Below, piece after piece: positions 28,401-37,973 of a stretch of 64,000 bases of DNA. The position numbers and the translations under genes are program-made. Position 1 is the first letter of the stretch. Each line of letters starts with the position of its first letter. The notes beneath the pieces are model-generated. The model was not told the DNA's origin. It worked only from the letters and a program-made list of their open reading frames with translations, and made no database searches. The stretch lies in NCBI GenBank assembly GCA_963771275.1, contig CAVYSW010000011.1:64001-128000 (forward strand). The letters run 5' to 3'. The stretch comes from an uncultured Gemmatimonadales bacterium (GTDB taxonomy: Bacteria > Gemmatimonadota > Gemmatimonadetes > Gemmatimonadales > GWC2-71-9).

Positions 28401-28660
28401 AACACGGGACGGAACGTCGTGCCCGCGTTGGTGGTCTTCCAGATCCCGCCGGCCACGGTCGCGACGAAGAACGTCTTGGACGGGCTGGGAATACCCTCGA
28501 TATCCGTGATCCGGCCGCCCATGTTCGCCGGGCCGACCGAGCGCCAGCGCAACGCGGACAAGGTGGCGGAATCGAGCGGAGTGGAGACTTGGGCCTGAAG
28601 CGACGAGACGCCAGCGACCAGAACGAGCGCTGGCACGAGCCATGGGGCGCGATGACGCAT
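25442..28660 (-). CDS. Secreted VPS10/sortilin-like BNR-repeat beta-propeller protein (putative glycosyl hydrolase)
   Basis: WRSVGPANMGGRI, many SxDGGxTW Asp-box repeats, GGLQDNGSW, ATHGRSIW. Confidence 0.88.
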   Translation of the reverse strand: MRHRAPWLVPALVLVAGVSSLQAQVSTPLDSATLSALRWRSVGPANMGGRITDIEGIPSPSKTFFVATVAGGIWKTTNAGTTFRPVFDRERVVSMGDIAIAPSDTMIVWAGTGEEDSRNSISPGGGIYKSTDGGLTWTFMGLRETQQIGRIIVHPTNPDIVYVAALGHAWGPNPERGLYKTTDGGKTWQLNKFISNKAGFVDLAMDPTNPNVLFASSWERVRGPYFLNSGGPGSGLWKTTDGGTTWSEVKGGGFPETMKGRIGIAIAPSDPKVVYALTEADSGKGSKERLSGLYRSADGGATWTKMNSNDVRPFYYSQVRVDPRDANRVYWSSTPVNFSDDGGKTARNATVGIHVDHHAMWIDPNDPQHFIVGNDGGVAQTWDRGGNYDFLNAIAIGQFYHVSYNMDVPYRVCGGLQDNGSWCGPSRRARGGIDNLMWFFVNGGDGFYTAQDPNDPNIVYAESQGGSMARVDLTTGARTSLQKPDWRPRYTEYEDSVVVDWPDTAVRPSRELQRRLDDLRRRQRADSATLDMRWNWNTPFLISQHDPNVFYAGANRVLKSTKRGDNLLPISPDLTTRDTMRIRVSTRTTGGITPDATGAETHSTITALAESPLRFGLLFAGTDDGNVWLTRDDGGSWESLTGRFPGVPAKTWVTRVEPSHFDSATFYVTFDNHRENDFRPYAYVTNDFGKTFRSIANNLPSDGVDFVHVIREDPYNRDLLFLGTDVAAYVSTDRGASWQRFMEGLPTVPVHDLEIHPRDHELIAATHGRSIWIVGIAPLEQLTDAVLAKSAYLFAPRTAYQYGDVPVGGGSNGHKWFSEPSPQYGAEIAYRVAKGEARARVQLVVTGARGDTVRTIDGPGSTGLHQVVWDFRGAPAPSKPLSPAERRDSLKFIARVDQVFDSLVKAGMNQAMLDRLRESIKSGNMQALAARFGGGGGGGGGGGAGRFGAAQGFVERPGESSAGAAGRAAAQGEGAQAGGEQGAEALPGQAQMQDILRALRPPGARGGGGGFGGLSFGLYNPGRRGGGSLVETGDYLVTLTIGGETMRQTLRVERVRGGGESGFPFEEDESRQ

Positions 28661-29110
28661 CACGACCTCGCGTGAGTGTGGAGTGTGGACCGCGAACGGC
28701 AGACCTGCACGAGCCGTTTACGCACGCGCGCGCAGCGGCGTTGAGCCGCGGCGACCCAATCTGCCCTGCCGGGCACCCGGTCGCCACCCGGGATCGCGGG
28801 CCCCAGCCGCCCGCCCCCCTCACGATGACGCCGGATCCCACGACTTTCTGGTCGCCAACCTACCTGAGTCATCCCGTCGCAGCTGCCACGTTTCGCTCCA
28901 GGTGGCTCGAATCAGGCCACTTGCCGTGCTGACCAGTGCATCGCTAATGCGAACTACCACAAGCACTTACGACATCACCCCAAGGGGAATGGATCGTGCG
29001 GAGTTCGGTGCGGCGCCCGCTGGGAACGAGACGAAGCCGACTCGGCGCGCCGGCGGATTGGGCTCCGGCTCACAGAACGGATCCGTGAATTCCGTACCTT
29101 GGCGTCCCCT

Positions 29111-30100
29111 ATGCAACTGCCTCATGCCGCCACCGCGAGCGCGCTGCCGCGGCCGCCACGGCCCGCGCTTCGCGCCGTGAGCACGTCGGGCCGCGCAGCG
29201 TCGGTCCCGGCCACCACCGCCTCGGCGACCCCTTCGCAGATCGCCCGTCGCGCGGTCACCGTCGGCGCGGTGCTGGTCTGGCTGGCCGTGGCCGGCACGC
29301 TGCTCGTCTGGGGCTTCCCGTACTACATCACGCCGCTCCAGGCCCGCGCCTACTCGACCTACCACGAGCTGCTCAAGCCCTCCGGCCTGGTGGGCCAGGG
29401 GTACGGCGTGATCGGCACGCTGATGATGGTGGTCGGCGTGACCGGCTACTCGTTGCGCCGGCGCGTCCGGTGGCTCAACCGGGCCGGCAAGCTGAAGACC
29501 TGGCTCAGCGTGCACATCTTCCTCTGCACCCTCGGCCCGTTCCTCATCGTGCTCCATACGACGCTCAAGTTCGGCGGCATCGTGTCGATCGCGTTCTGGA
29601 GCATGATCGCCGTCGTGACGAGCGGCGTGTTCGGCCGGTACGTGTACGTCCGGATCCCCAAGACGCTGAACGGCCAGTTTCTCTCGCTCCAGAGCATCGA
29701 GGAGCAGCGCGGCACCATGCTCCGCACCATCCAGGAGCGGTCCGGGCTTTCCACGGCGGAGATCGACGGGATCCTCAGGGTCGCCAAGCGGCCTGCGCCC
29801 CGCGGCTTCGCCGGCGCGCTGTTCCAGTCCCTCTGGTACGACCTGACGGCGGGCGCGCACGGCCGGAAGATCCACCGGGCACTCGCGGCCAAGGGCGTCC
29901 CACCCAAGGCGCGGGCCGTGGCGGCGACGCTGTTCCTCGACGAGGCCAACCTCGAGCATCAGGTCGCGCTGCTGACGCCGTTCCAGCGCCTGTTCAAGTA
30001 CTGGCACCTGTTCCACATGCCACTCGCCCTCGTGATGCTCGTGATCGTGCTGATCCACGTGTCCGTCGCCGTCCTGCTCGGCTACACGTGGCTGTTCTGA
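29111..30100 (+). CDS. Inner-membrane protein with membrane His residues (putative cytochrome b-like)
   Basis: About 5-6 hydrophobic segments; WLSVHIF, IVLHTT, YWHLFHMP, LIHV. First gene of the cytochrome operon. Confidence 0.7.
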   Translation: MQLPHAATASALPRPPRPALRAVSTSGRAASVPATTASATPSQIARRAVTVGAVLVWLAVAGTLLVWGFPYYITPLQARAYSTYHELLKPSGLVGQGYGVIGTLMMVVGVTGYSLRRRVRWLNRAGKLKTWLSVHIFLCTLGPFLIVLHTTLKFGGIVSIAFWSMIAVVTSGVFGRYVYVRIPKTLNGQFLSLQSIEEQRGTMLRTIQERSGLSTAEIDGILRVAKRPAPRGFAGALFQSLWYDLTAGAHGRKIHRALAAKGVPPKARAVAATLFLDEANLEHQVALLTPFQRLFKYWHLFHMPLALVMLVIVLIHVSVAVLLGYTWLF

Positions 30101-30108
30101 CCGGCTCG

Positions 30109-31824
30109 GTGCATCGCCCTCCGGCGACCCGACTCGCCCTCCTCATGCTGCTCGCCTTCGCGCCCACGGCACGCGCCCAGCTGCTCTCCCCCGGGAAGCT
30201 CATCGCCTCGCACGGCGACCTCGACGGCGTGCGCCACTGCACGAAGTGCCACCAGCTGGGGGAGCGCGGCGTCGCCGACGCGAAGTGCCTCGACTGCCAT
30301 AAGCCGATCGCGCAGCGCATCGCCCAGAAGCAGGGCTTTCACGCCACGATCGGCAGCCGCACCTGCGGCGAGTGCCACAAGGACCACTTCGGCACCGACT
30401 TCGACGCGGTCCATTTCGACACGGCGGGCTTCGACCACCGCGCCAAGACCGGGTTCGACCTGGCTGGGGGGCACGCGAGCACCGCCTGCCGGGACTGCCA
30501 CCGGCCGGAGTACGTGGTGGAGACCGCGGTGCGGCAGGAGGCCGGCGAGCATGGTCGCCTGGCAACGACATATCTCGGACTCGCCACGACGTGCGTCGGC
30601 TGTCACCGGAACGACGATCCCCACGCCGGCCAGTTCCCCAATCAGGGCTGCGAGGACTGCCATGCCGAGGTGGACTGGAAGAAGCCGGACCGGTTCGACC
30701 ATGCCAAGACGCGCTACCCGCTGCACGGCAAGCACGTGGACGTGGCCTGCCGCGACTGCCACACCCCGATCCCAGGCCAGAAAGGGGCGCTCAAGCTCAC
30801 GGGCCTCGCGTTCGGCACCTGTGCGGCCTGTCACCAGAAGGACGATCCGCACGCAGGCCAGTTCGCCGCACGGCGGTGCGACGAGTGCCACGCCGAGACG
30901 GGCTGGAAGAGCCTCGGTCGCTTCGACCACTCGGCCACCAAGTACCCGCTCACGGGGCGTCACCTGGATGTCGAGTGCCAGAAGTGCCACACCCCACTGC
31001 CGGGACGCAGAGGAGCCATGCGGCTCACCGGCCTCGAGTTCGCGACCTGCCTGGCCTGCCACAAGAACGACGACCCGCACGGGGGGCGTCTCGGCACCGG
31101 GTGCAACGACTGCCACACGACCGCCGGCTGGCGCGCCACGGGCGGGGCCAGCTTCGAGCGCAAGTTCGATCACGCCCGCACGCGGTTCGCGCTGCACGGC
31201 AAGCACGCCACGGTCGAGTGCGCCGCGTGCCACGATCCGGCACGGCCGCGCGCCAACGACATTGCGCTGGCGTTCGTTGCGGCGACCCGCACACGCGCCT
31301 ACCCGGTACCGGTGGCGGACCAGTGCACCTCGTGCCACACGGACTACCACGCCGGCGCGTTCGCCAAGAGCCCCGGCGGCCTCGCATGCACGAACTGCCA
31401 CGGCGAGGACGCCTGGCTCCCCACGGACTACGACATCGCGCGCCACAACCGCGACGCCCGTTACGAGCTGACGGGCGCGCACCGCGCCGCGCCCTGCGTC
31501 GCCTGCCACAAGAGCGCGGCCCTCGGGCAGCAGGCGCTCGTGTTCCGCATCGCCCAGCAGGACTGCCTCGCGTGCCACCGGTCCAACGACCCCCACGGCG
31601 ACCAGTTCACGGGCCGGACGTGCGACTCGTGCCACGACACCCGCGCGTTCCGCATCGCCGCGTTCGACCACGCCAAGACGCGGTACCCGCTGGACGGGGC
31701 GCACCGCAACGTCGCGTGCGCCTCGTGCCACCCGTCGGTTCCGGGGCCGGATGGCAAACCCATGCGACGCTATCGGCCCCTCGGCATGACCTGCCGGGAC
31801 TGCCACGAGGGAGATCGCTCATGA
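30109..31824 (+). CDS. Multiheme cytochrome c, 20 CxxCH motifs
   Basis: Signal peptide ending ARAQ, SPGKLIASH start, 20 CxxCH counted by hand. GTG start at 30109 (alternative ATG 30145). Confidence 0.93.
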   Translation: MHRPPATRLALLMLLAFAPTARAQLLSPGKLIASHGDLDGVRHCTKCHQLGERGVADAKCLDCHKPIAQRIAQKQGFHATIGSRTCGECHKDHFGTDFDAVHFDTAGFDHRAKTGFDLAGGHASTACRDCHRPEYVVETAVRQEAGEHGRLATTYLGLATTCVGCHRNDDPHAGQFPNQGCEDCHAEVDWKKPDRFDHAKTRYPLHGKHVDVACRDCHTPIPGQKGALKLTGLAFGTCAACHQKDDPHAGQFAARRCDECHAETGWKSLGRFDHSATKYPLTGRHLDVECQKCHTPLPGRRGAMRLTGLEFATCLACHKNDDPHGGRLGTGCNDCHTTAGWRATGGASFERKFDHARTRFALHGKHATVECAACHDPARPRANDIALAFVAATRTRAYPVPVADQCTSCHTDYHAGAFAKSPGGLACTNCHGEDAWLPTDYDIARHNRDARYELTGAHRAAPCVACHKSAALGQQALVFRIAQQDCLACHRSNDPHGDQFTGRTCDSCHDTRAFRIAAFDHAKTRYPLDGAHRNVACASCHPSVPGPDGKPMRRYRPLGMTCRDCHEGDRS

Positions 31825-33176
31825 TCCGCCTCCGCAGCGCTTTCCTGCTGGCCCTCGCGGCCGGCCTCGCGCATCCCGCGGCGGCGCAGCAGAACCCGCA
31901 CGGCACGCTCCCCGCCGGGCTGGACTGCAGCGACTGCCACACGTCGAAGAGCTGGAAGCCCGACCCCGCGACCGTGAAGTTCGACCACAACCGGCAGACC
32001 GGCTTCAAGCTGGTCGGCCGGCACCGCGACGCGGCGTGCCGCTCGTGCCATCTGTCGGTGAAGTTCGACGAGGCGACGCTCAAGGGCGCGGATTGCGCCA
32101 CGTGCCACGCCGACGTGCACCGCGGGGCGTACACCGAGCGGTGCGAGAGCTGCCACACGACCGTGAGCTTCGCGGACGTGCCCGGGCTGCAGGTCCACGC
32201 GCGGACCACGTTCCCGCTGACCGGGGCACACGCGCAGATCGCCTGCCGCGCCTGTCACGTGGACGACCGGGACGGCGCGTTCACGCCGCTCGATCCCCAG
32301 TGCATCTCGTGCCACCGCGCGGACTACGAGCGCGCCAGCCCGGTGAACCACGTGGCGGCGAACTACCCGACCGACTGCACGCGCTGCCACGTCACGGTCG
32401 CCTGGCCGGCGCACGTGAACTTCGATCACGTCTCCCTGTCGAACGGGTTCCGGCTGATCGGCGCGCACGCGCGCATCCGCTGCACCAGCTGCCACGCCAC
32501 GGCGGACATGACCCCGCTGTTCCCGGGAGCCAAGGACCAGGACTGCATGACCTGTCACCAGCCGGACTACAGCCGGGCACATCCGGGGAACAGCTTCCCG
32601 CAGACCTGCCTCAGCTGCCATACGATGGAAACGTGGGCCGGTGCGACCTTCGACCACCCCCTCGTGGCGAACGGGTTCCGGCTGCAGGGAGCACATGCGT
32701 CGCTGGCCTGTCAGGCCTGCCACGCGGCGGACATGACGCCGCTGTTCCACCCGTCGAACGACCAGGATTGCATCACCTGCCACCAGGCGAACTACCAGGC
32801 GGCCCCGAACCACGTGACGGGGAACTACCCGCAGGCCTGTCTGCAATGCCACACCCAGATCACCTGGCAAGGGGCGACGTTCGCCCACACGCCGTCCATG
32901 ACCGACTGCGTTTCGTGCCATCACGCCGATTTCGTCGCGGCGACCTCCCCGGTGAACCACACGACGCAGGGCATCATCGAGGCCGCCTGCAGCCAGTGCC
33001 ACGACAACAACGCCGGCACCTGGGCGCAAACCTCATATGTCCATGGCGACTGCTACAGCAGCACGACCAACCGGGCGCATCAGAACGCGCGTTGCTCGCA
33101 GTGTCACACCAGCGGGTATCCCGCGGCCACATGCACGGCCTGCCACCAGAACAGGTCTTCATGCCGAGACTCATGA
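31821..33176 (+). CDS. Multiheme cytochrome c, 17 CxxCH motifs
   Basis: Signal peptide ending AAAQ, 17 CxxCH counted by hand; ATGA overlap with the previous gene. Confidence 0.93.
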   Translation: MIRLRSAFLLALAAGLAHPAAAQQNPHGTLPAGLDCSDCHTSKSWKPDPATVKFDHNRQTGFKLVGRHRDAACRSCHLSVKFDEATLKGADCATCHADVHRGAYTERCESCHTTVSFADVPGLQVHARTTFPLTGAHAQIACRACHVDDRDGAFTPLDPQCISCHRADYERASPVNHVAANYPTDCTRCHVTVAWPAHVNFDHVSLSNGFRLIGAHARIRCTSCHATADMTPLFPGAKDQDCMTCHQPDYSRAHPGNSFPQTCLSCHTMETWAGATFDHPLVANGFRLQGAHASLACQACHAADMTPLFHPSNDQDCITCHQANYQAAPNHVTGNYPQACLQCHTQITWQGATFAHTPSMTDCVSCHHADFVAATSPVNHTTQGIIEAACSQCHDNNAGTWAQTSYVHGDCYSSTTNRAHQNARCSQCHTSGYPAATCTACHQNRSSCRDS

Positions 33177-33261
33177 AGTGGTTCACTCGGGCGTGCCGTA
33201 CGGCGCATACGTCGGCAATCGCCGTCAGCAGGGTCACCGCCTGGGAAGGGCGGACGGAGCG

Positions 33262-34842
33262 ATGACGGCCCGAATCTCCGGGGTGGTCGGCGCCACCCTG
33301 CTCGCGCTGGCGACGGTGGCCTCCCCGCGCGCCGCCGCGCAGCAGGGCCGCGTCGCCGTGGTGGTGGACTACATCGCCGGTGCCGACATCTACCTCGCGG
33401 CGGGGAGCGAGCAGGGTCTCGCCTCCAATGACACGCTCCTCGTCTACGAGGCCCCGGAGGGCGACCAGGTGGGGCGGTTTTTCGTGGTGAGCGCCACGGC
33501 GACCCGGGCCGTCGTCGAGTTCATCGGCACCGCATTCCCGGTCACGCGCGGCAAGACGCTCTACGTCCAGCGCACGTCGGCGCACGCGGCCGAGCCGGCC
33601 CCGCTCGTCACCGAAGGGCCGGCGCCCGCCCGGCGGCCGGACGGGCGGTCCGCCTCGCTGCACGGGCGGCTCGCGCTCGAGGCCGACGGCTTCCAGAGCA
33701 CGACGCTGTGGCAAAGCAACCAGCTCGAGTCGGAGACGCGCCAGTTCGCCACCCCGTCGCTCGGCCTCCGGGCGGTGGCGACGGACCTCCCAGGCGGGTT
33801 CAGCCTGAACACCAACCTCCGAGCCCAGTATCGCTACAGCAATCCGGCCGTGATCAACCCGGCGTGGGCCGTTCAGGTGTATCAAGCAAGCCTGGCCAAG
33901 TCGTTCACCGGCTTCCCGCTGTACGTCGAGCTCGGCCGGTTCAGCAATCAGTACACCAACTTCAGCGGCCAATGGGACGGCCTGATGATGCGGCTCGGCG
34001 GCCGGCGGGGGTTGGGTGGCGGCTTCGCCGCCGGGTTCGAGCCCGCGAGCGGCGACCAGGGGCTCTCCACCACGCTGCCCAAGTACTCGGGGTTCCTCAC
34101 GGTCGACGCCGGCGGCGGGCCGCTGCGCTACTCCACTTACCTCTCGGCAACCCAGGTGCGCCCGCGGAACGGCCTCCTGGTGCACAGCTACCTCGGGTGG
34201 TCGCAGTACCTGCGCGCGCGGCGGTTCCGGCTGAGCAGTGACGCGCAGGTCGACCGCGACCCCGAGACCAGCAAGTGGGTGGTGACGCGGTTCAACGCCA
34301 CCGCGTCCATCCCGCTGGCGCGCGGCCTGGAGATCCACAGCCGCCTGTCCCGGTTCCAGCCCTACGCGTTCTGGCAGACGACGAACCTGATTTCCTACCG
34401 GCGCGACCAGGGCAACGTGGGGCTGTTCTACTTCGGCTCCGGGGGGAGCATCGGCCTCGATGTCACCGCGAACCGGTTCGCCGCGAGCGACACGACCGCG
34501 CGCGAGACGAGTTACACGTACTCAGCGTCATTCAGTCTGCTGCGGACGCCCATCCTCGGACTCGACTGGAGCGCCTCGGGGAGCTACTGGACCCAGAGCG
34601 GGAGCAAGTCGCTCTACGCCACCGCGGGGCTCGCCCGGAGCTTCGGGCGGGTGCATTCGCGCGCGTCCTACCAGCTCTACCGCTCCCAGAGCGCCACGCT
34701 GACGTCGGTGAGCCACAGTGTGGACGCCGGCCTGTCGTTCCCGCTGGCGCGAAGCCTCTACGCGACGTTCCAGGGACGGATGCAGCGCGGCGGGGACCTC
34801 CATACCAGCGGACTGTATTTCGGTCTGTGGACGAGCTTCTGA
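33262..34842 (+). CDS. Outer-membrane beta-barrel (porin-like) protein
   Basis: Signal peptide; many amphipathic Tyr/Ser/Thr/Gly-rich strands; C-terminal LYFGLWTSF with terminal Phe (BAM-type signal). Confidence 0.78.
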   Translation: MTARISGVVGATLLALATVASPRAAAQQGRVAVVVDYIAGADIYLAAGSEQGLASNDTLLVYEAPEGDQVGRFFVVSATATRAVVEFIGTAFPVTRGKTLYVQRTSAHAAEPAPLVTEGPAPARRPDGRSASLHGRLALEADGFQSTTLWQSNQLESETRQFATPSLGLRAVATDLPGGFSLNTNLRAQYRYSNPAVINPAWAVQVYQASLAKSFTGFPLYVELGRFSNQYTNFSGQWDGLMMRLGGRRGLGGGFAAGFEPASGDQGLSTTLPKYSGFLTVDAGGGPLRYSTYLSATQVRPRNGLLVHSYLGWSQYLRARRFRLSSDAQVDRDPETSKWVVTRFNATASIPLARGLEIHSRLSRFQPYAFWQTTNLISYRRDQGNVGLFYFGSGGSIGLDVTANRFAASDTTARETSYTYSASFSLLRTPILGLDWSASGSYWTQSGSKSLYATAGLARSFGRVHSRASYQLYRSQSATLTSVSHSVDAGLSFPLARSLYATFQGRMQRGGDLHTSGLYFGLWTSF

Positions 34843-34843
34843 C

Positions 34844-36151
34844 ATGTCGGACACGCTGCTGATCGGGGCGGTCGGCGCCGTACTCGTGCTCCTCGTCATG
34901 GTGCCGTTCTACCGCCGGCAGCGGAACCTCGAGCGCACGACCGCCGAGGCGGAGCAGCTCGCCAAGCGCTACGGGCTGAACGAGCCCCTCTCGCTCCACC
35001 CGGTGGTGGACGTCGGCGGGTGCATCGGGACGGGCAACTGCGTATCGGTCTGCCCCGAGGGCGACGTCTTGGGGTTCCGCCACGGCCAGGCCTTCGTCGT
35101 GAGCCCCGCCCGCTGCATCGGGCACGGCCTGTGCGAGCGGGCCTGCCCCACCGAGGCGATCCAGCTGGTGTTCGGATCCGCCAAGCGGGGCGTGGAGATT
35201 CCGCGGGTCAAGCAGAACTTCGAGAGCAACGTCCCCGGCCTCTACATCATCGGGGAGCTCGGCGGCATGGGGCTGATCCGCAACGCGTTCGAGCAGGGTC
35301 GTCAGTGCATCGAGGGCATCGCGCGCGAGGCCAAGGGGTCGGGCGACGCGCTCGACGTCCTGATCGTGGGCTGCGGGCCGGCAGGCCTGTCCGCGTCGTT
35401 GCACTGCCTGCACCACAGCCTCCGCTTCGCGACGCTCGAAAAGGAGGACATCGGCGGGACGGTGCGCTACTACCCGCGGAAGAAGATCGTGATGACCAGC
35501 ACCGTGAAGGTGCCGGGCTACGGGAAGCTCGACTTCCGCGAGATCAGCAAGGAGGAGCTGATCGACATCTGGGAGGACATCGTCGAGCGCACCCAGCTCA
35601 AGGTGAACATCGGGGAGACGGTCACCGGCGTGGCGCGGGGATCGGACGGGTGCTTCACGGTCACCAGCGGCACCAGGACCTACAAGACGCGGCGGGTGGT
35701 GCTGGCGATCGGGCGGCGGGGCGTGCCCCGCAAGCTCGGAGTCCCGGGGGAGGAGCTTCCCAAGGTGATCTACTCGCTGCACGAGCCCGAGGCGTATCAG
35801 AAGGACCGCATCCTGGTGGTCGGCGGCGGCGACTCGGCCGTGGAGGCCGCGCTCGCGCTGTCCGACCAGCCGGGCAACGAGGTGAAGATGTCCTACCGCG
35901 GCGAGCAGTTCAGCCGCATCAAGCCGGGCAACCTCCAGCGGGTGGAAGAGGCCATCGCGCGGCGCCGCGTCGAGGTGTTGTGGCAGACGAACGTGGTCGA
36001 GATCACGCCCAAGACGGTGGTCTGCAAGAACGGCGGCGAGCCGCTGGCGCTCCCCAACGACGTCGTCGCGGTGTTCGCCGGCGGCGAGCTGCCGCTCAAG
36101 TTCCTCGAGAGCTGCGGCGTCCAGGTGGACCGGAAGTTCGGCGAGCCCTGA
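34844..36151 (+). CDS. Membrane-anchored Fe-S/FAD NAD(P)H oxidoreductase (thioredoxin reductase-like)
   Basis: N-terminal TM; CIGTGNCVSVCP and CIGHGLCERACP; IVGCGPAG; VVGGGDSAVEAA; SYRGEQFSR. Confidence 0.85.
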   Translation: MSDTLLIGAVGAVLVLLVMVPFYRRQRNLERTTAEAEQLAKRYGLNEPLSLHPVVDVGGCIGTGNCVSVCPEGDVLGFRHGQAFVVSPARCIGHGLCERACPTEAIQLVFGSAKRGVEIPRVKQNFESNVPGLYIIGELGGMGLIRNAFEQGRQCIEGIAREAKGSGDALDVLIVGCGPAGLSASLHCLHHSLRFATLEKEDIGGTVRYYPRKKIVMTSTVKVPGYGKLDFREISKEELIDIWEDIVERTQLKVNIGETVTGVARGSDGCFTVTSGTRTYKTRRVVLAIGRRGVPRKLGVPGEELPKVIYSLHEPEAYQKDRILVVGGGDSAVEAALALSDQPGNEVKMSYRGEQFSRIKPGNLQRVEEAIARRRVEVLWQTNVVEITPKTVVCKNGGEPLALPNDVVAVFAGGELPLKFLESCGVQVDRKFGEP

Positions 36152-36158
36152 CCACGCG

Positions 36159-37973
36159 CTACCGGCGCGCCACCAGCAGGATCCCCTCGTAGCTCGAGAT
36201 CGTCAGGCTGTCGGCCCCGCCCTGCCCGGCGATCATGCGCAGGTAGAACGCCGCCCGGCCGGCCGGCGTCTCCCGCTCGAGATGGAGCAGATCCGCAGGC
36301 AGCCCGTCGGGACCGGACCCGCCGTGCCCCGTCGCCCGCAGCGTCTGGATCAAGCTGTCGAGCGGCAGGGCCACCAGCGGTCTCGCGTCGTCGTAGACCA
36401 CGAGCGCCAGCCCGCCGCGCGCCGGGGCTACCCGGAAGCCGGCGCCCGGGGTGAGCGAGTCGAAGCGCCCGCGCGTGACGGAGAACACCGCGTCGTAGCC
36501 GGCGACCGGGATCGCGACGTTCTTGAGGTCCGACCCATAGCGGAACTCCATGTTGGGCCCCGGCATCGCCCAGCGGCTCACGTAGCCCACGTTGAGCGCC
36601 CGGGCGATGAGCTCCGCCCGCGCCTCGACGTCTCCCGATGCGGCCGTCCCGTGCGCGACGGTGTCGATCCGCCCGAGCGAGTCGCCAAACCACGGCGCGA
36701 TCGCCCCGGTGCCATGGGTTTCCACGAGGTACCGCAGGACGGCAGAGATCTCGCGCCGGTCGGCTTCGGACGGCTGGGCCTCCGCCCGGTGAGCCGTTCC
36801 CGCCACCATCACGCCGTTCCGCTCGAGCAGGGCCGCCAGCCGCCCCACCTGGCTCGACTCGGACACCCGGTAGGCACTCCACGGGCCGAACAGCGTGAGC
36901 ACGGCGACGGCACAGAGCGACGCGGGTATCACCTTGATGTTCCGGGACCGCGTGAGCAGCGCGTGCACCGCGATGCCGGCGAGCCAGAGCGACAGCACGC
37001 TGAGGAAGTAGCGTGGCTCCGTGATGCCGTACTGCTGGACGCGCTGCCAGATGGCAACCCACAGCATCGCGATCGCCGGCAGCAGGGCCAGGTAGAATCC
37101 GCGCGCGTAAACCGCCACCCAGCGATTCGCGGCCTCGCCCGCCACGGGATGGACCAGCAGCAGCGAGAAGATCCCCACCGCCGCGACGCTCGAGACCAGC
37201 CACCCGATCCAGCCGCTCGGCCAGTTCCAGGTCACCACGACCTTGACCAGGTAGACGGTGAGAATCACGAGGTAGACGGCGACGATCGGGAGCAGGGCGT
37301 ACTGCGTGAACGCCTTGATGCCGGCGGGGTAGCCGTGCGACGCGTCGAGCGCCCCAAAGTCGCGCGGCACGCCACCCAGGAAGAACCACGTGTTGAACAC
37401 GAAGCCGAGCACGAACCACAGGCGCAGGTAGCCGGTCCCCGGCACGCCCACGCCGAACAGCTTGTCGATCGCCGCGAGCGCGATCGCCGCACCGGCGTAC
37501 AGCACGACCGTGTACAGCGCGCTCACGATCGCGCGCTCCAGTAGCGTGCGGTTGTATTGCCAGAATCCGTTGCGCTCGGCCCGGCCCACGTACGGCAGGA
37601 ACGCGACCAGCAGGTGGCAGGCCGCGCTCGCCTGCACGTAGCGCCCGAACCGGACGGGCTCCGACCAGTGACCCCAGGCCACCGCGAACCACGCCAGCAG
37701 CCCGATCGCCGCCAGGCTCACGACCCCGTTCGGCACGCGCCCCCACGCGCGGCGCTCGCCGGCGAGCGCCAGGGCCACGAACAGCGGGATGCCGAGCGTC
37801 GCCACGGCCAGCAGCCGGACGTTCTGCTCGGGGTCGCCGAGCTCGTCGGGGATCCGGATCGCGAAGACCGCCGACACGGTCGCGGCCAGCAGCACGAGCG
37901 GAAAGCGCAGCAGCGCCTCGCGCGCCCCCCGCACGATCGGCTCCAGCGTCGGCAGCACACCACGCAGTGTCAT
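36159..37973 (-). CDS. Polytopic membrane protein, DUF4153-like
   Basis: FWQYN, YALLPIV.VY..IL..Y, RVQQYGITEPRY, GPWSA..VSESSQ..RL. Confidence 0.7.
   Translation of the reverse strand: MTLRGVLPTLEPIVRGAREALLRFPLVLLAATVSAVFAIRIPDELGDPEQNVRLLAVATLGIPLFVALALAGERRAWGRVPNGVVSLAAIGLLAWFAVAWGHWSEPVRFGRYVQASAACHLLVAFLPYVGRAERNGFWQYNRTLLERAIVSALYTVVLYAGAAIALAAIDKLFGVGVPGTGYLRLWFVLGFVFNTWFFLGGVPRDFGALDASHGYPAGIKAFTQYALLPIVAVYLVILTVYLVKVVVTWNWPSGWIGWLVSSVAAVGIFSLLLVHPVAGEAANRWVAVYARGFYLALLPAIAMLWVAIWQRVQQYGITEPRYFLSVLSLWLAGIAVHALLTRSRNIKVIPASLCAVAVLTLFGPWSAYRVSESSQVGRLAALLERNGVMVAGTAHRAEAQPSEADRREISAVLRYLVETHGTGAIAPWFGDSLGRIDTVAHGTAASGDVEARAELIARALNVGYVSRWAMPGPNMEFRYGSDLKNVAIPVAGYDAVFSVTRGRFDSLTPGAGFRVAPARGGLALVVYDDARPLVALPLDSLIQTLRATGHGGSGPDGLPADLLHLERETPAGRAAFYLRMIAGQGGADSLTISSYEGILLVARR

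Follow-up and report, generated by a model that had tools for sequence, protein, structure and literature searches.

The five-gene operon at 29111-36151 on the + strand of the analysed window, a stretch of 64,000 nucleotides from an uncultured soil Gemmatimonadales bacterium, most likely encodes a trans-envelope electron conduit of the PCC3 type together with its own cytoplasmic input module, as judged from its predicted proteins and their relatives. All five co-directional open reading frames, here genes A to E, were confirmed to be present. The intergenic gaps are 8, -4, 85 and 1 bp (A/B, B/C, C/D and D/E), in keeping with the tight spacing described in the initial annotation, and the start of gene C overlaps the stop of gene B by 4 bp. 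Both flanking genes (Sortilin/BNR upstream and DUF4153 downstream) lie on the - strand, so genes A to E form an isolated co-directional block. The 37 CxxCH motifs in 1022 residues, together with conserved synteny, far exceed chance.

Gene A (29111-30100, + strand, 329 aa) encodes a PCC3-type inner-membrane protein (IMP), which we predict to be a di-heme b transmembrane electron carrier. Its AF2 model (pLDDT 81.8) has five transmembrane helices (residues 41-73, 93-118, 128-150, 157-181 and 298-322), with TM4 and TM5 separated by a helical insert of ~110 residues on the cytoplasmic side. Two histidine motifs, W131-x3-H135-x13-H149 on TM3 and W298-x3-H302-x13-H316 on TM5, lie either side of an S171-G-x-x-G175 motif on TM4, and across 19 aligned homologues each motif residue is invariant or conserved to at least 90%; the putative heme b binding follows from these motifs. 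At motif level, five helices, SGxxG and two copies of WxxxHx13H are the defining features of PCC3/PCC4 IMPs, and the sections of He et al. 2017 (PMC5566968) dealing with PCC3 describe an IMP of ~300 aa with five transmembrane helices, in which TM4 bears SGxxG and TM3 and TM5 each bear WxxxHx13H. The protein had been called His-rich, which is overstated for 10 His in 329 residues; what counts is the four conserved His on helices 3 and 5. No Pfam family was matched at its cut-off by any of 19 family members, sub-threshold matches being to DUF4405 (6/19), Ferric_reduct (2/19, best 6e-4) and Ni_hydr_CYTB (2/19). A fold search gave no significant match, with Dcytb (Z 6.5), STEAP4 (Z 6.3) and SpNOX (Z 6.1) at the level of helical-bundle noise. 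The start codon is ambiguous, with ATG 29111, GTG 29177 and GTG 29270 as candidates, and the homologues share no conserved N-terminus. The predicted topology places the N-terminus and the R/K-rich loops on the cytoplasmic side, so a copy of E fused or docked there would sit on the correct face.

Genes B and C encode secreted multiheme c-type cytochromes with 20 and 17 CxxCH motifs, counts that agree with those first reported for the operon. Gene B (30109-31824, + strand, 571 aa) has ~29 residues per heme and, as read from the sequence, a signal-peptide-like N-terminus ending ...APTARA/Q. Its Pfam matches above cut-off are Cytochrome_C7 (8.4e-24), Cytochrom_c3_2 and the MtrC/MtrF II-IV domain. 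Gene B homologues at related loci contain 17-24 hemes; they are better conserved than those of gene C, and the product of gene B is a probable periplasm-spanning wire, equivalent to the 'periplasmic MHC' of PCC3. Gene C (31821-33176, + strand, 451 aa) matches Cytochrome_C7 (5.6e-21) and the MtrC/MtrF domain above cut-off, and no lipobox Cys is present in its sequence. The heme number of its homologues ranges from 12 to 58 across related loci, and gene C is probably the outer or extracellular cytochrome.

Gene D (33262-34842, + strand, 526 aa) encodes an outer-membrane beta-barrel. The initial annotation had proposed a barrel ending in Phe and had named structure prediction of this product as a test of its reading. 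The AF2 model (pLDDT 75.5, pTM 0.64) is indeed a barrel, with 22 strands by DSSP and the C-terminus ...LWTSF, and leaves that reading standing. A signal peptide is followed by a small N-terminal beta domain (31-105), a low-confidence linker (106-128) and the strands (132-525), closed by the final Phe. Foldseek returned only outer-membrane barrels (FimD/PapC ushers and porins; E 1e-10 to 1e-7, TM up to 0.48), and no Pfam or NCBIfam family was matched, MtrB-like families included. A profile built from 9 homologues found a barrel gene in 70 related loci.

The logic of this arrangement is like that of MtrCAB/MtoAB in Shewanella and Sideroxydans, in which a periplasmic cytochrome is threaded in a barrel and paired with an outer cytochrome, and the MtrC/MtrF domain II-IV Pfam family matches both B and C. 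Membership of the MtrCAB/MtoAB group was rejected, given a score of 40 bits against a cut-off of 192 for the DmsE/MtrA decaheme model and no MtrB-like family match for D. MtrB has 26 strands, compared with 22 predicted for D, and MtrCAB carries 10 + 10 hemes, compared with 20 + 17 here. The input differs as well: Mtr is fed by quinol via CymA, whereas a flavoprotein and a di-heme b protein are proposed for the present operon.

By motifs and gene content, rather than by sequence homology to the founding Sideroxydans genes, genes A to D are a PCC3 porin-cytochrome cluster as published, itself a putative conduit. Such clusters combine the IMP with a periplasmic ~21-heme cytochrome, a second cytochrome of variable heme number and a porin, at a low residue/heme ratio, all of which are matched here; the variability of the extracellular cytochrome is likewise noted in the PCC3 passages of the three sources covered (He et al. 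2017, PMC5566968; the Gallionellaceae survey, PMC9900912; the Sideroxydans CL21 transcriptome, bioRxiv 10.1101/2025.02.27.639646). The initial annotation knew of no characterised system with the full layout. It had not recognised A to D as a published cluster, and the layout is therefore less unprecedented than claimed. The PCC3 passages of the same three sources describe four genes, propose a link to quinone and give carriers that are mostly Proteobacteria; they name no flavoprotein, and 'FAD' does not occur in the text scanned for it. In the present case the carrier belongs to the Gemmatimonadota and E is a fifth member of the conserved set. A literature search found no paper combining 'PCC3' and 'flavoprotein'.

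Gene E (34844-36151, + strand, 435 aa) encodes a membrane-anchored Fe-S flavoprotein, for which we propose the role of an NAD(P)H dehydrogenase feeding gene A. The transmembrane-anchored Fe-S/FAD enzyme of the initial annotation is recognisable in its domain order: an N-terminal transmembrane helix, a ferredoxin-like 4Fe-4S dicluster domain (Fer4_10 at 34 bits, where the cut-off is 25.5) and an FAD and NAD(P)H domain of the TrxR/YpdA-like type (Pyr_redox_3, 2e-43). The hydrophobic helix (1-25) is followed by YRRQRN, which by the positive-inside rule places the domains of E in the cytoplasm, and the sequence lacks a Tat motif. The Fe-S motifs are non-canonical, C60-x5-C66-x3-C70-P and C91-x2-H94-x2-C97-x3-C101-P, and provide six Cys and one His. 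In the alignment C60, C66, C70, C91, H94, C97, C101, GxGPAG, GGGDSAxE and S350-Y-R...R358 are invariant. The types of Fe-S cluster are uncertain because the first motif has just three Cys in the window's clade, in 10/19 sequences.

The closest solved structure to E is YpdA/Bdr (7a7b, 3e-29), a bacillithiol disulfide reductase, followed by TrxR-type ferredoxin-NADP reductases (2zbw, 3ab1 and 3lzw, extending to 5e-9), which share with E the two-Rossmann FAD and NAD(P)H fold. Assignment to the YpdA/Bdr family itself was rejected (TIGR04018, 160 bits against a cut-off of 339.9), and E differs by its additional N-terminal membrane helix and dicluster ferredoxin domain. All conserved Cys in the alignment belong to the Fe-S motifs, and in the structure alignment the Cys of the YpdA GPCGL motif is Ala in E; on these residues E is of the ferredoxin-NADP reductase (FNR) kind rather than a disulfide reductase. 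The SYRG...R stretch of E aligns with the LYRG stretch of YpdA, which we take to be NADPH-dependent, and these motifs suggest that E probably uses NADPH rather than NADH.

Gene E is linked to gene A well beyond the window. Of the 301 Gemmatimonadota genomes sampled, a strong A homologue occurs in 63, every one of which also encodes a full-length E homologue; E is present in 66, and in the three that lack A it lies at a contig end. A and E share a contig in 61 of the 63 genomes, with a gap of at most 1.1 kb in 53, counts that are not independent events because the compared genomes are relatives. The linkage persists through rearrangement, the gene orders seen being A-B-C-D-E, E-A-B-C-D, E<>A-B-C, A-E-B-C and A-B-C-x-E. 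Co-occurrence of the five genes elsewhere was one of the points on which the initial annotation had staked its reading. Where the contig reaches at least 2 kb upstream and at least 9 kb downstream of A, all five families are found together at 44 of 47 loci. In Acidobacteriota, A lies within 6.1 kb of E on the same contig in 19 of the 25 genomes with an E match. Plasmid pEMTOL02 of the cultured Bacteroidota strain Emticicia oligotrophica DSM 17448 carries ccsA, an IMP (40%), E (45%), 23-heme and 40-heme cytochromes and a barrel-like gene, so the gene set recurs in three phyla.

In relatives the two proteins are also fused. Among the best-scoring 120 longer E homologues (763-1395 aa), 89 carry, C-terminal to E in one polypeptide, an entire IMP domain that has both WxxxHx13H motifs. 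In 11 others (9 + 2) E is joined to an 18-34-heme cytochrome, with a hydrophobic segment between the two parts in 3 of the 4 checked (P0003, P0001 and P0108, not P0051). Where E is missing it may be replaced: in 4 of the 6 acidobacterial IMP loci without E that were examined, an FNR-type protein unrelated to E (FAD_binding_6, NAD_binding_1, Fer2) is encoded directly upstream of the IMP. At the other two, L115 and L116, both on short contigs, neither partner type was seen. Distant IMP relatives on proteobacterial plasmids are flanked by this FNR-type protein on one side and by a heptaheme cytochrome on the other. A link between flavoprotein and membrane protein, on whose putative exchange of electrons the initial annotation also depended, is supported by co-presence and adjacency, by natural fusions and by replacement with a non-homologous NAD(P)H/Fe-S protein. 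Linkage or fusion of the IMP to an NAD(P)H-type flavoprotein is so consistent that the cell interior, rather than quinones, is the probable source of electrons for the wire. PCC4 subgroup II offers a published precedent for a cytoplasmic Fe-S partner: as far as the PCC4 account in He et al. 2017 (PMC5566968) extends, an Fe-S protein gene (pfam13247, with no flavin/NAD(P)H domain reported) lies directly upstream of an analogous IMP and is annotated as a single gene with it in one genome, although the IMP family is another one and there are three periplasmic cytochromes and no extracellular one.

We judge it reasonably likely that electrons pass outward from NAD(P)H through FAD, Fe-S, two b hemes, the 20-heme cytochrome, the barrel and the 17-heme cytochrome without involving quinone. 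In this scheme E, anchored in the inner membrane with its domains on the cytoplasmic side, would oxidise NAD(P)H (probably NADPH) at FAD, and single electrons would leave through its two Fe-S clusters. A would then carry them over the inner membrane by a pair of bis-His b hemes, one close to the cytoplasmic face (H135/H302) and one close to the periplasmic face (H149/H316). The 20-heme B would cross the periplasm, and the 17-heme C, in or at the 22-strand barrel D, would hand electrons to an extracellular acceptor, with Fe(III), Mn(IV), humics or a partner cell as candidates. We infer the electron exchange between A and E, the direction of flow and the quinone bypass, as we do the cofactor content, the protein contact, the choice of NADPH over NADH and the acceptor.

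A quinone-linked PCC3, in which A exchanges with the quinone pool and E is an NDH-2-like NAD(P)H:quinone reductase or an auxiliary reductase, seems unlikely, if worth weighing. Electrons would run from NAD(P)H through E, quinone and A to the cytochromes, or would arrive as quinol from general metabolism. He et al. 2017 (PMC5566968) propose that the IMP works as a quinone-active cytochrome b, and E is membrane-anchored and in the same broad flavoprotein superfamily as NDH-2. Gene adjacency fits direct and quinone-mediated transfer alike, and three Gemmatimonadales genomes encode E away from the cluster. Against this stand the direct fusions of E to the IMP and the observation that in both partner types the last carrier is a one-electron Fe-S domain (two Fe-S in E, 2Fe-2S in the FNR type), a design that suits handover to a protein metal centre and not to quinone. 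Nor did a quinone-site motif come up in the general sequence analysis.

The wire could also end within the envelope, reducing a periplasmic or outer-membrane target (a toxic metal, an oxidant or a redox enzyme), with the barrel serving for anchoring or export rather than as a sheath. Distant three-gene relatives (FNR-type protein, IMP and heptaheme cytochrome) do occur without a porin, in copper/heavy-metal resistance islands of proteobacterial plasmids, and the best fold matches of D are ushers and general porins, not MtrB. We nevertheless consider this reading decidedly improbable, since a barrel gene goes with the cytochromes in 70 loci, the hemes (37 here and up to 58 in C homologues) far exceed the needs of a periplasmic relay, and the architecture resembles that of MtrCAB.

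Inward flow, from extracellular Fe(II), minerals or a cathode via A to E and NAD(P)+ as lithotrophic or electrotrophic reducing power, would accord with the discovery of PCC3 in Fe(II)-oxidising bacteria, where the PCC3 passages of the literature discuss it as a candidate iron oxidase (PMC5566968, PMC9900912, bioRxiv 10.1101/2025.02.27.639646) with electrons proposed to flow inward to quinone (He et al. 2017, PMC5566968). Enzymes of the FNR type can in principle run either way, but transfer from Fe(II) to NAD(P)+ is strongly uphill and runs against the inside-negative membrane potential, and since no proton-coupling module is seen in A or E by Pfam or in the AF2 model of A, nothing is seen to pay for it; we regard this as the least probable of the readings, and very doubtful. 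To our knowledge, the Gemmatimonadota, Acidobacteriota and Emticicia carriers are not lithotrophic iron oxidisers, which also counts against it.

For the preferred outward wire fed by NAD(P)H, the proposed mechanism at the inner membrane is that of the NOX/ferric reductase (FRD) superfamily (NOX, FRE, SpNOX and the bacterial 'long forms') and of MsrQ with Fre: NAD(P)H, a flavin, two stacked b hemes on TM3/TM5 His pairs and a far-side acceptor. Some FRD long forms carry a Fer2 domain, according to Zhang et al. 2013 (PMC3591440). The differences are that A falls below the Ferric_reduct cut-off and has five helices where FRD proteins have six, that the proposed dehydrogenase is an Fe-S protein of the TrxR/YpdA-like type encoded separately, N-terminal when fused rather than a C-terminal FNR domain, and that the acceptor is a multiheme cytochrome chain rather than O2 or Fe(III) directly. 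Such a NOX/ferric reductase-like step would need no quinone and would be electrogenic, in the direction favoured by the membrane potential. The role of the operon would therefore be that of an electron sink or of reductive metal mobilisation, and not proton-pumping respiration.

The operon at 29111-36151 comprises five genes on the plus strand, designated A to E. Gene A (29111-30100, 329 aa) encodes a membrane protein, B (30109-31824, 571 aa) and C (31821-33176, 451 aa) encode cytochromes with 20 and 17 CxxCH motifs, D (33262-34842, 526 aa, with the C-terminus LWTSF) encodes a barrel, and E (34844-36151, 435 aa) encodes a flavoprotein. The genes are separated by 8, -4, 85 and 1 bp, in that order, and are flanked by minus-strand genes on both sides (Sortilin/BNR upstream and DUF4153 downstream). 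A scan of 28500-36500 for promoters and terminators gave no sites of either kind and is uninformative in a high-GC lineage. The window has a G+C content of 70%, and its genome, whose relatives as fetched by name are Gemmatimonadales MAGs, comprises 3.86 Mb in 11 contigs and is 96.7% complete. The initial annotation of a five-gene operon with cytochromes, a barrel and an Fe-S flavoprotein is borne out by the open reading frames, CxxCH counts, family matches and the model of D; its description of A as "His-rich" is overstated, since the protein contains 10 His in 329 residues. Public DNA runs from peat, freshwater sediment and soil metagenomes contain 0.21-0.48 of the words sampled from 29111-36151, and one coded organism run contains 0.80, a pointer to possible near-identical DNA. 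Multiheme cytochromes are also concentrated at another locus of the same genome (contig C3, approximately 275608-300447, minus strand), where stop-to-stop frames, some of them overlapping, carry 21, 19, 11, 9, 9, 9 and 8 CxxCH motifs; it has no homologue of A, D or E and resembles B and C only weakly.

The first four genes form a porin-cytochrome cluster of the published PCC3 type. The available portions of He et al. 2017 (PMC5566968) describe the PCC3 inner-membrane protein (IMP) as having about 300 aa and five helices, with an SGxxG motif on helix 4 and WxxxHx13H motifs on helices 3 and 5. Gene A encodes W131/H135/H149 in TM3, S171-G172-x-x-G175 in TM4 and W298/H302/H316 in TM5, and conservation of these residues among 19 homologous sequences is complete or at least 90%. 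In the AF2 model of A (pLDDT 81.8), the chain forms five long membrane helices plus a helical insert on the cytoplasmic side, and hydropathy windows concur. By the positive-inside rule, the N-terminus, the loop between TM2 and TM3 and the insert are predicted to be cytoplasmic, and the predicted hemes would lie near the cytoplasmic face (H135/H302) and near the periplasmic face (H149/H316). The size, the five helices, the SGxxG motif and the two WxxxHx13H motifs assign the core to PCC3, an assignment made by published motifs and gene content. A Foldseek search of A against the PDB gave no match at E <= 0.001, and a wider fold search of the PDB gave a best Z score of 8.3, to unrelated helical proteins; the scores against Dcytb (6.5), STEAP4 (6.3) and SpNOX (6.1) all lie within noise. 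The ferric reductase family PF01794 matches 2 of the 19 family members below its cut-off (best 6.3e-4) and DUF4405 matches 6, while a precomputed PF01794 match is present on two natural E-IMP fusions. The nearest sets in a protein-cluster search with A are named only "hypothetical protein" and are commonest in Acidobacteriota and Gemmatimonadota. A thiol-reducing role for E and the IMP in cytochrome maturation was ruled out, as A has no conserved Cys.

Matches to cytochrome c7/c3 and MtrC-domain families were obtained for both B and C, each of which begins with a signal-peptide-like stretch. Their heme motif counts agree with those published for PCC3, namely about 21 hemes for the periplasmic cytochrome and a count that varies for its extracellular counterpart (available portions of PMC5566968, PMC9900912 and bioRxiv 10.1101/2025.02.27.639646). 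Against the MtrA/DmsE model TIGR03508, B and C score 40.4 and 29.9 bits, short of the cut-off of 192.2, and both fall far under the cut-offs of the HmcA and ExtN models. The D protein has no family match, and so none of MtrB type either. Its AF2 model (pLDDT 75.5) consists of a small N-terminal beta domain followed by a 22-strand barrel, and its Foldseek matches are exclusively outer-membrane barrels of generic kinds; MtrB is absent among the fold matches listed, an absence that does not show the folds to differ. Standard barrel geometry gives an estimated C-alpha diameter of about 40 Angstrom for 22 strands, somewhat narrower than the 26-strand MtrB, and on this estimate it is plausible that D is wide enough to hold a cytochrome. 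Several compared loci encode larger cytochromes. A Gemmatimonadaceae homologue of C has 58 CxxCH motifs in a 1523-aa frame (L073:12982-17550), another C homologue has 46 (L018:10467-14156), and an acidobacterial locus of 43% GC has a single frame with 51 that resembles B and C joined (L114:5038-8886).

Gene E encodes one N-terminal helix, then the sequence YRRQRN, a dicluster ferredoxin domain (34.0 bits for Fer4_10, whose cut-off is 25.5, and 33.3 for Fer4_7, whose cut-off is 27) and a Pyr_redox_3 flavin domain. Among solved structures, the nearest to the flavin domain is YpdA/Bdr (7a7b, 3e-29), with TrxR-type ferredoxin-NADP reductases next. YpdA uses NADPH, and its LYRG region lines up with the GGGDSAxE motif and an invariant S-Y-R...R of E. 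The Cys of the YpdA motif GPCGL is catalytic; E has GPAGL at the position of GPCGL in 7a7b, with Ala for Cys, and has no conserved Cys outside its Fe-S motifs. The YpdA model TIGR04018 scores E at 160.4 bits against a cut-off of 339.9. The missing Cys and the score below cut-off rule out a disulfide reductase of the bacillithiol type, and on the same grounds we read E as a putative NAD(P)H:Fe-S oxidoreductase. The ferredoxin domain is also unusual. Where the canonical arrangement is two CxxCxxCxxxCP motifs with 8 Cys, the second Cys of motif 1 is missing from 10 of 19 sequences, including the window's E, and in motif 2 an invariant His replaces the second Cys. These substitutions suggest that E is likely to contain one His-ligated cluster and, in the window's clade, perhaps a 3Fe-4S cluster. 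The stretch at 35210-35320 (E residues ~123-160), ...FESNVPGLYIIGELGGMGL..., which follows the ferredoxin domain and precedes the GxGxxG motif, resembles the region of the C-terminal FAD "GD" motif of YpdA, which would imply a circularly permuted flavin domain; the resemblance is an impression only, the HMMER alignment of the stretch not being significant.

The distribution of A and E was compared across 301 sampled Gemmatimonadota genomes, including two unpublished ones (G057 and G156) that have no match to A and match E only at about 1e-23 each. A full-length E homologue (E <= 2e-75) is present in 66 genomes and a strong A homologue in 63, all 63 of which also encode E; in the three genomes with E and without A, E lies at a contig end. 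The two genes share a contig in 61 of the 63 genomes, as divergent neighbours in 36, with a gap of up to 1.1 kb in 17 (A first in 14, E first in 3), and with A first at a distance of 4-7.6 kb in 8, the window included. Gene order varied across 20 loci (A-B-C-D-E, E-A-B-C-D, E<>A-B-C, A-E-B-C and A-B-C-x-E) while the families remained together. A further 80 loci were drawn with an alignment of eight sequences of IMP subgroup A4, which biases them to that subgroup and to Gemmatimonadales; most are from Gemmatimonadales, a few carry the label Acidobacteriota and one the label Actinomycetes. E is within the locus in 73 of the 80. In four of the other seven the sequence breaks off no more than 650 bp from A, and in one (L081) it ends 1.8 kb downstream of that gene, while L065 and L073 have full flanks and lack E at the locus; the genomes of L081, L065 and L073 encode E elsewhere. 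With a profile for D added, all five families occur in 48 of the 80 loci, and in 44 of the 47 that extend at least 2 kb upstream and at least 9 kb downstream of A, these being counts over related genomes and not over independent events. The three misses are L065 and L073, where E is not nearby, and L101, which has no D. Judged by this gene content, the fifth gene is a member of the conserved set, and co-occurrence of the five genes elsewhere, as the initial annotation would have it, holds both in these flanked loci and in other phyla.

Among 251 sampled Acidobacteriota genomes, E is matched at <= 1e-60 in 25 and the IMP profile in at least 39, a floor set by a stricter first look. Both genes lie within 6.1 kb on one contig in 19 of the 25 E-bearing genomes; of the remaining six, three have the match at contig ends and three have a different flavoprotein-polyferredoxin architecture. 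The cultured Bacteroidota strain Emticicia oligotrophica DSM 17448 carries the set, EMTOL_RS21090-21110, on plasmid pEMTOL02 in the order ccsA, IMP, E homologue, 23-heme cytochrome, 40-heme cytochrome and D-like protein. Its IMP (281 aa) is 40% identical and has both motifs, the E homologue is 45% identical, and the D-like protein has 538 aa. The gene directly before the five-gene set (L117:7929-11015, 1028 aa) is annotated as the cytochrome c biogenesis protein CcsA, so that the plasmid may supply its own heme-attachment machinery, and a second group on the opposite strand encodes a small c-type cytochrome, a Rieske protein and a barrel. Two acidobacterial minus-strand frames, both defined stop to stop, have IMP-like C-terminal domains in other fusions: one of 828 aa (L107:9714-12197) with a cNMP-binding domain and several 4Fe-4S domains, and one of 745 aa (L106:9498-11732) with a Ser/Thr protein kinase domain.

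We consider an outward electron path reasonably probable for this system, on evidence that is comparative or predicted throughout. E would oxidise NAD(P)H and pass electrons through FAD and its Fe-S clusters to two b hemes in A, from which they would travel to the 20-heme B, then to the 17-heme C at barrel D, and finally to an outside acceptor. Since electrons would leave an inside-negative cell while the NAD(P)H proton is retained, the outward step would consume membrane potential rather than build it, which would point to redox balancing or reductive metal mobilisation. Such a path would be akin to that of an NADPH oxidase (NOX) or a ferric reductase to which a porin-cytochrome wire had been added. 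Like those proteins, A has two His pairs 13 residues apart on its third and fifth helices (H135/H149 and H302/H316), a feature that marks the ferric reductase domain (FRD) superfamily according to the available portions of He et al. 2017 (PMC5566968). In FRD and NOX proteins, a C-terminal FAD/NADPH domain of FNR type is on the same chain, whereas A lacks such a domain and the dehydrogenase would be the separate, TrxR/YpdA-like E. Complex predictions of A, E and two hemes gave scores of 0.01, 0.40 and 0.02, where the mark is 0.32, and weigh neither way.

Natural fusions bear on how E and the IMP may be coupled. Of 8000 candidates scored, 848 longer proteins match E at E <= 1e-30, and the best 120 of these (763-1395 aa) were inspected. 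In 89 of the 120, a complete IMP domain bearing the two WxxxHx13H motifs comes after E. One natural E-IMP fusion, P0109, has 769 aa. E is joined to a cytochrome of 18-34 hemes in 11 (9 + 2), the latter two being among the other 22 proteins, in which no IMP domain is found by profile. Source names of the fusions include Phycisphaerales, Planctomycetes and Alphaproteobacteria. A published model in which quinones mediate the transfer is compatible with the synteny, but E-IMP fusions and one-electron Fe-S exit domains fit it poorly, and we regard it as unlikely. Direct fusion of E to a 20- or 34-heme cytochrome is seen in P0001, P0003, P0026, P0045 and P0051 (approximately 945-970 aa) and in P0096 and P0108 (approximately 1310 aa), so that the cytoplasmic dehydrogenase and periplasmic wire would form one chain with the IMP separate; a hydrophobic segment lies between the two parts in three of four proteins checked (P0003, P0001 and P0108) and was not found in P0051. 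About one fifth of the 120 have TPR-type repeats and neither IMP nor heme motifs (1100-1380 aa; among them P0002, P0006, P0008-P0011, P0014 and P0017), with source names including Myxococcota, Deltaproteobacteria and Alphaproteobacteria.

Elsewhere, E is replaced by a different putative dehydrogenase. In four of six acidobacterial IMP-cytochrome loci without E (L102-L105), the IMP gene is immediately preceded by one for an FNR-type protein unrelated to E, with FAD_binding_6, NAD_binding_1 and 2Fe-2S Fer2 domains, and these four proteins are 40-49% identical to one another; no partner was seen in the short contigs of the other two (L115 and L116). A protein of the same FNR type (30-36% identical) also precedes distant relatives of A on plasmids of Methylophaga pinxianii (L118:7073-10427) and Variovorax sp. 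RA8 (L120:6839-10513). There, and on a plasmid of Bradyrhizobium sp. BTAi1 (L119:8270-10424), it belongs to a three-gene module with a five-helix protein of about 250 aa bearing two Hx13H motifs and a heptaheme cytochrome c, and no porin; in BTAi1 the first, upstream gene of the module is truncated beside an IS3 element. All three modules are surrounded by copper and heavy-metal resistance genes and may be NAD(P)H-fed periplasmic metal reductases. These porin-less relatives suggest a wire that ends in the periplasm, an end-point we judge improbable for the operon itself given its conserved barrel and very long cytochromes. The presence of two unrelated NAD(P)H/flavin/Fe-S proteins in one position argues that the IMP family probably draws on cytoplasmic pyridine nucleotide for its electrons. 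Inward flow to NAD(P)+ through the same carriers is very improbable, being thermodynamically disfavoured and with no coupling module seen.

The four-gene core is a known, purely predicted type; the available portions of PMC9900912 and bioRxiv 10.1101/2025.02.27.639646 state that PCC3 has never been put to experimental test. A flavoprotein partner is not mentioned in the available portions of the PCC3 papers (PMC5566968, PMC9900912 and bioRxiv 10.1101/2025.02.27.639646), nor are E-IMP-like fusions in those of a survey of the FRD superfamily (PMC3591440). A search of open full texts, exclusive of the supplements of He et al., found no described flavoprotein partner or NAD(P)H-fed porin-cytochrome system. 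A more general proposal, which we hold to be evenly balanced between true and false, concerns PCC3-type conduits, which are currently regarded as candidate iron oxidases connected to the quinone pool. It holds that they form the outer section of an NAD(P)H:extracellular-acceptor oxidoreductase that spans both membranes and works like NOX. A flavin/Fe-S dehydrogenase, docked on or fused to a di-heme b protein, would pass cytoplasmic electrons directly to a wire with 37 to about 80 hemes, bypassing quinone. There would be two kinds of dehydrogenase, unrelated to each other: a TrxR-like one with 4Fe-4S-type clusters and an FNR-like one with 2Fe-2S.

To our knowledge, all characterised Gram-negative routes of extracellular electron transfer (Mtr and Geobacter Pcc/Ext) begin at quinol. 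If the proposal is true, extracellular electron transfer would have a widespread point of entry that had gone unrecognised, encountered here in Gemmatimonadota, Acidobacteriota and Bacteroidota and, as fusions, in proteins source-named Planctomycetes and Phycisphaerales. The natural E-IMP fusions and the plasmid copy in cultured E. oligotrophica make the hypothesis directly testable. Gemmatimonadota and Acidobacteriota are abundant in soil and sediment, where their part in iron and humic redox chemistry is poorly known. Feeding such a wire straight from NAD(P)H would differ in bioenergetic design from the quinol-fed routes: the system would not respire but would vent electrons at the expense of the pmf, or act as a reductase that mobilises metals. 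PCC3 genes in metagenomes, now taken as hints of iron oxidation, would be read differently.
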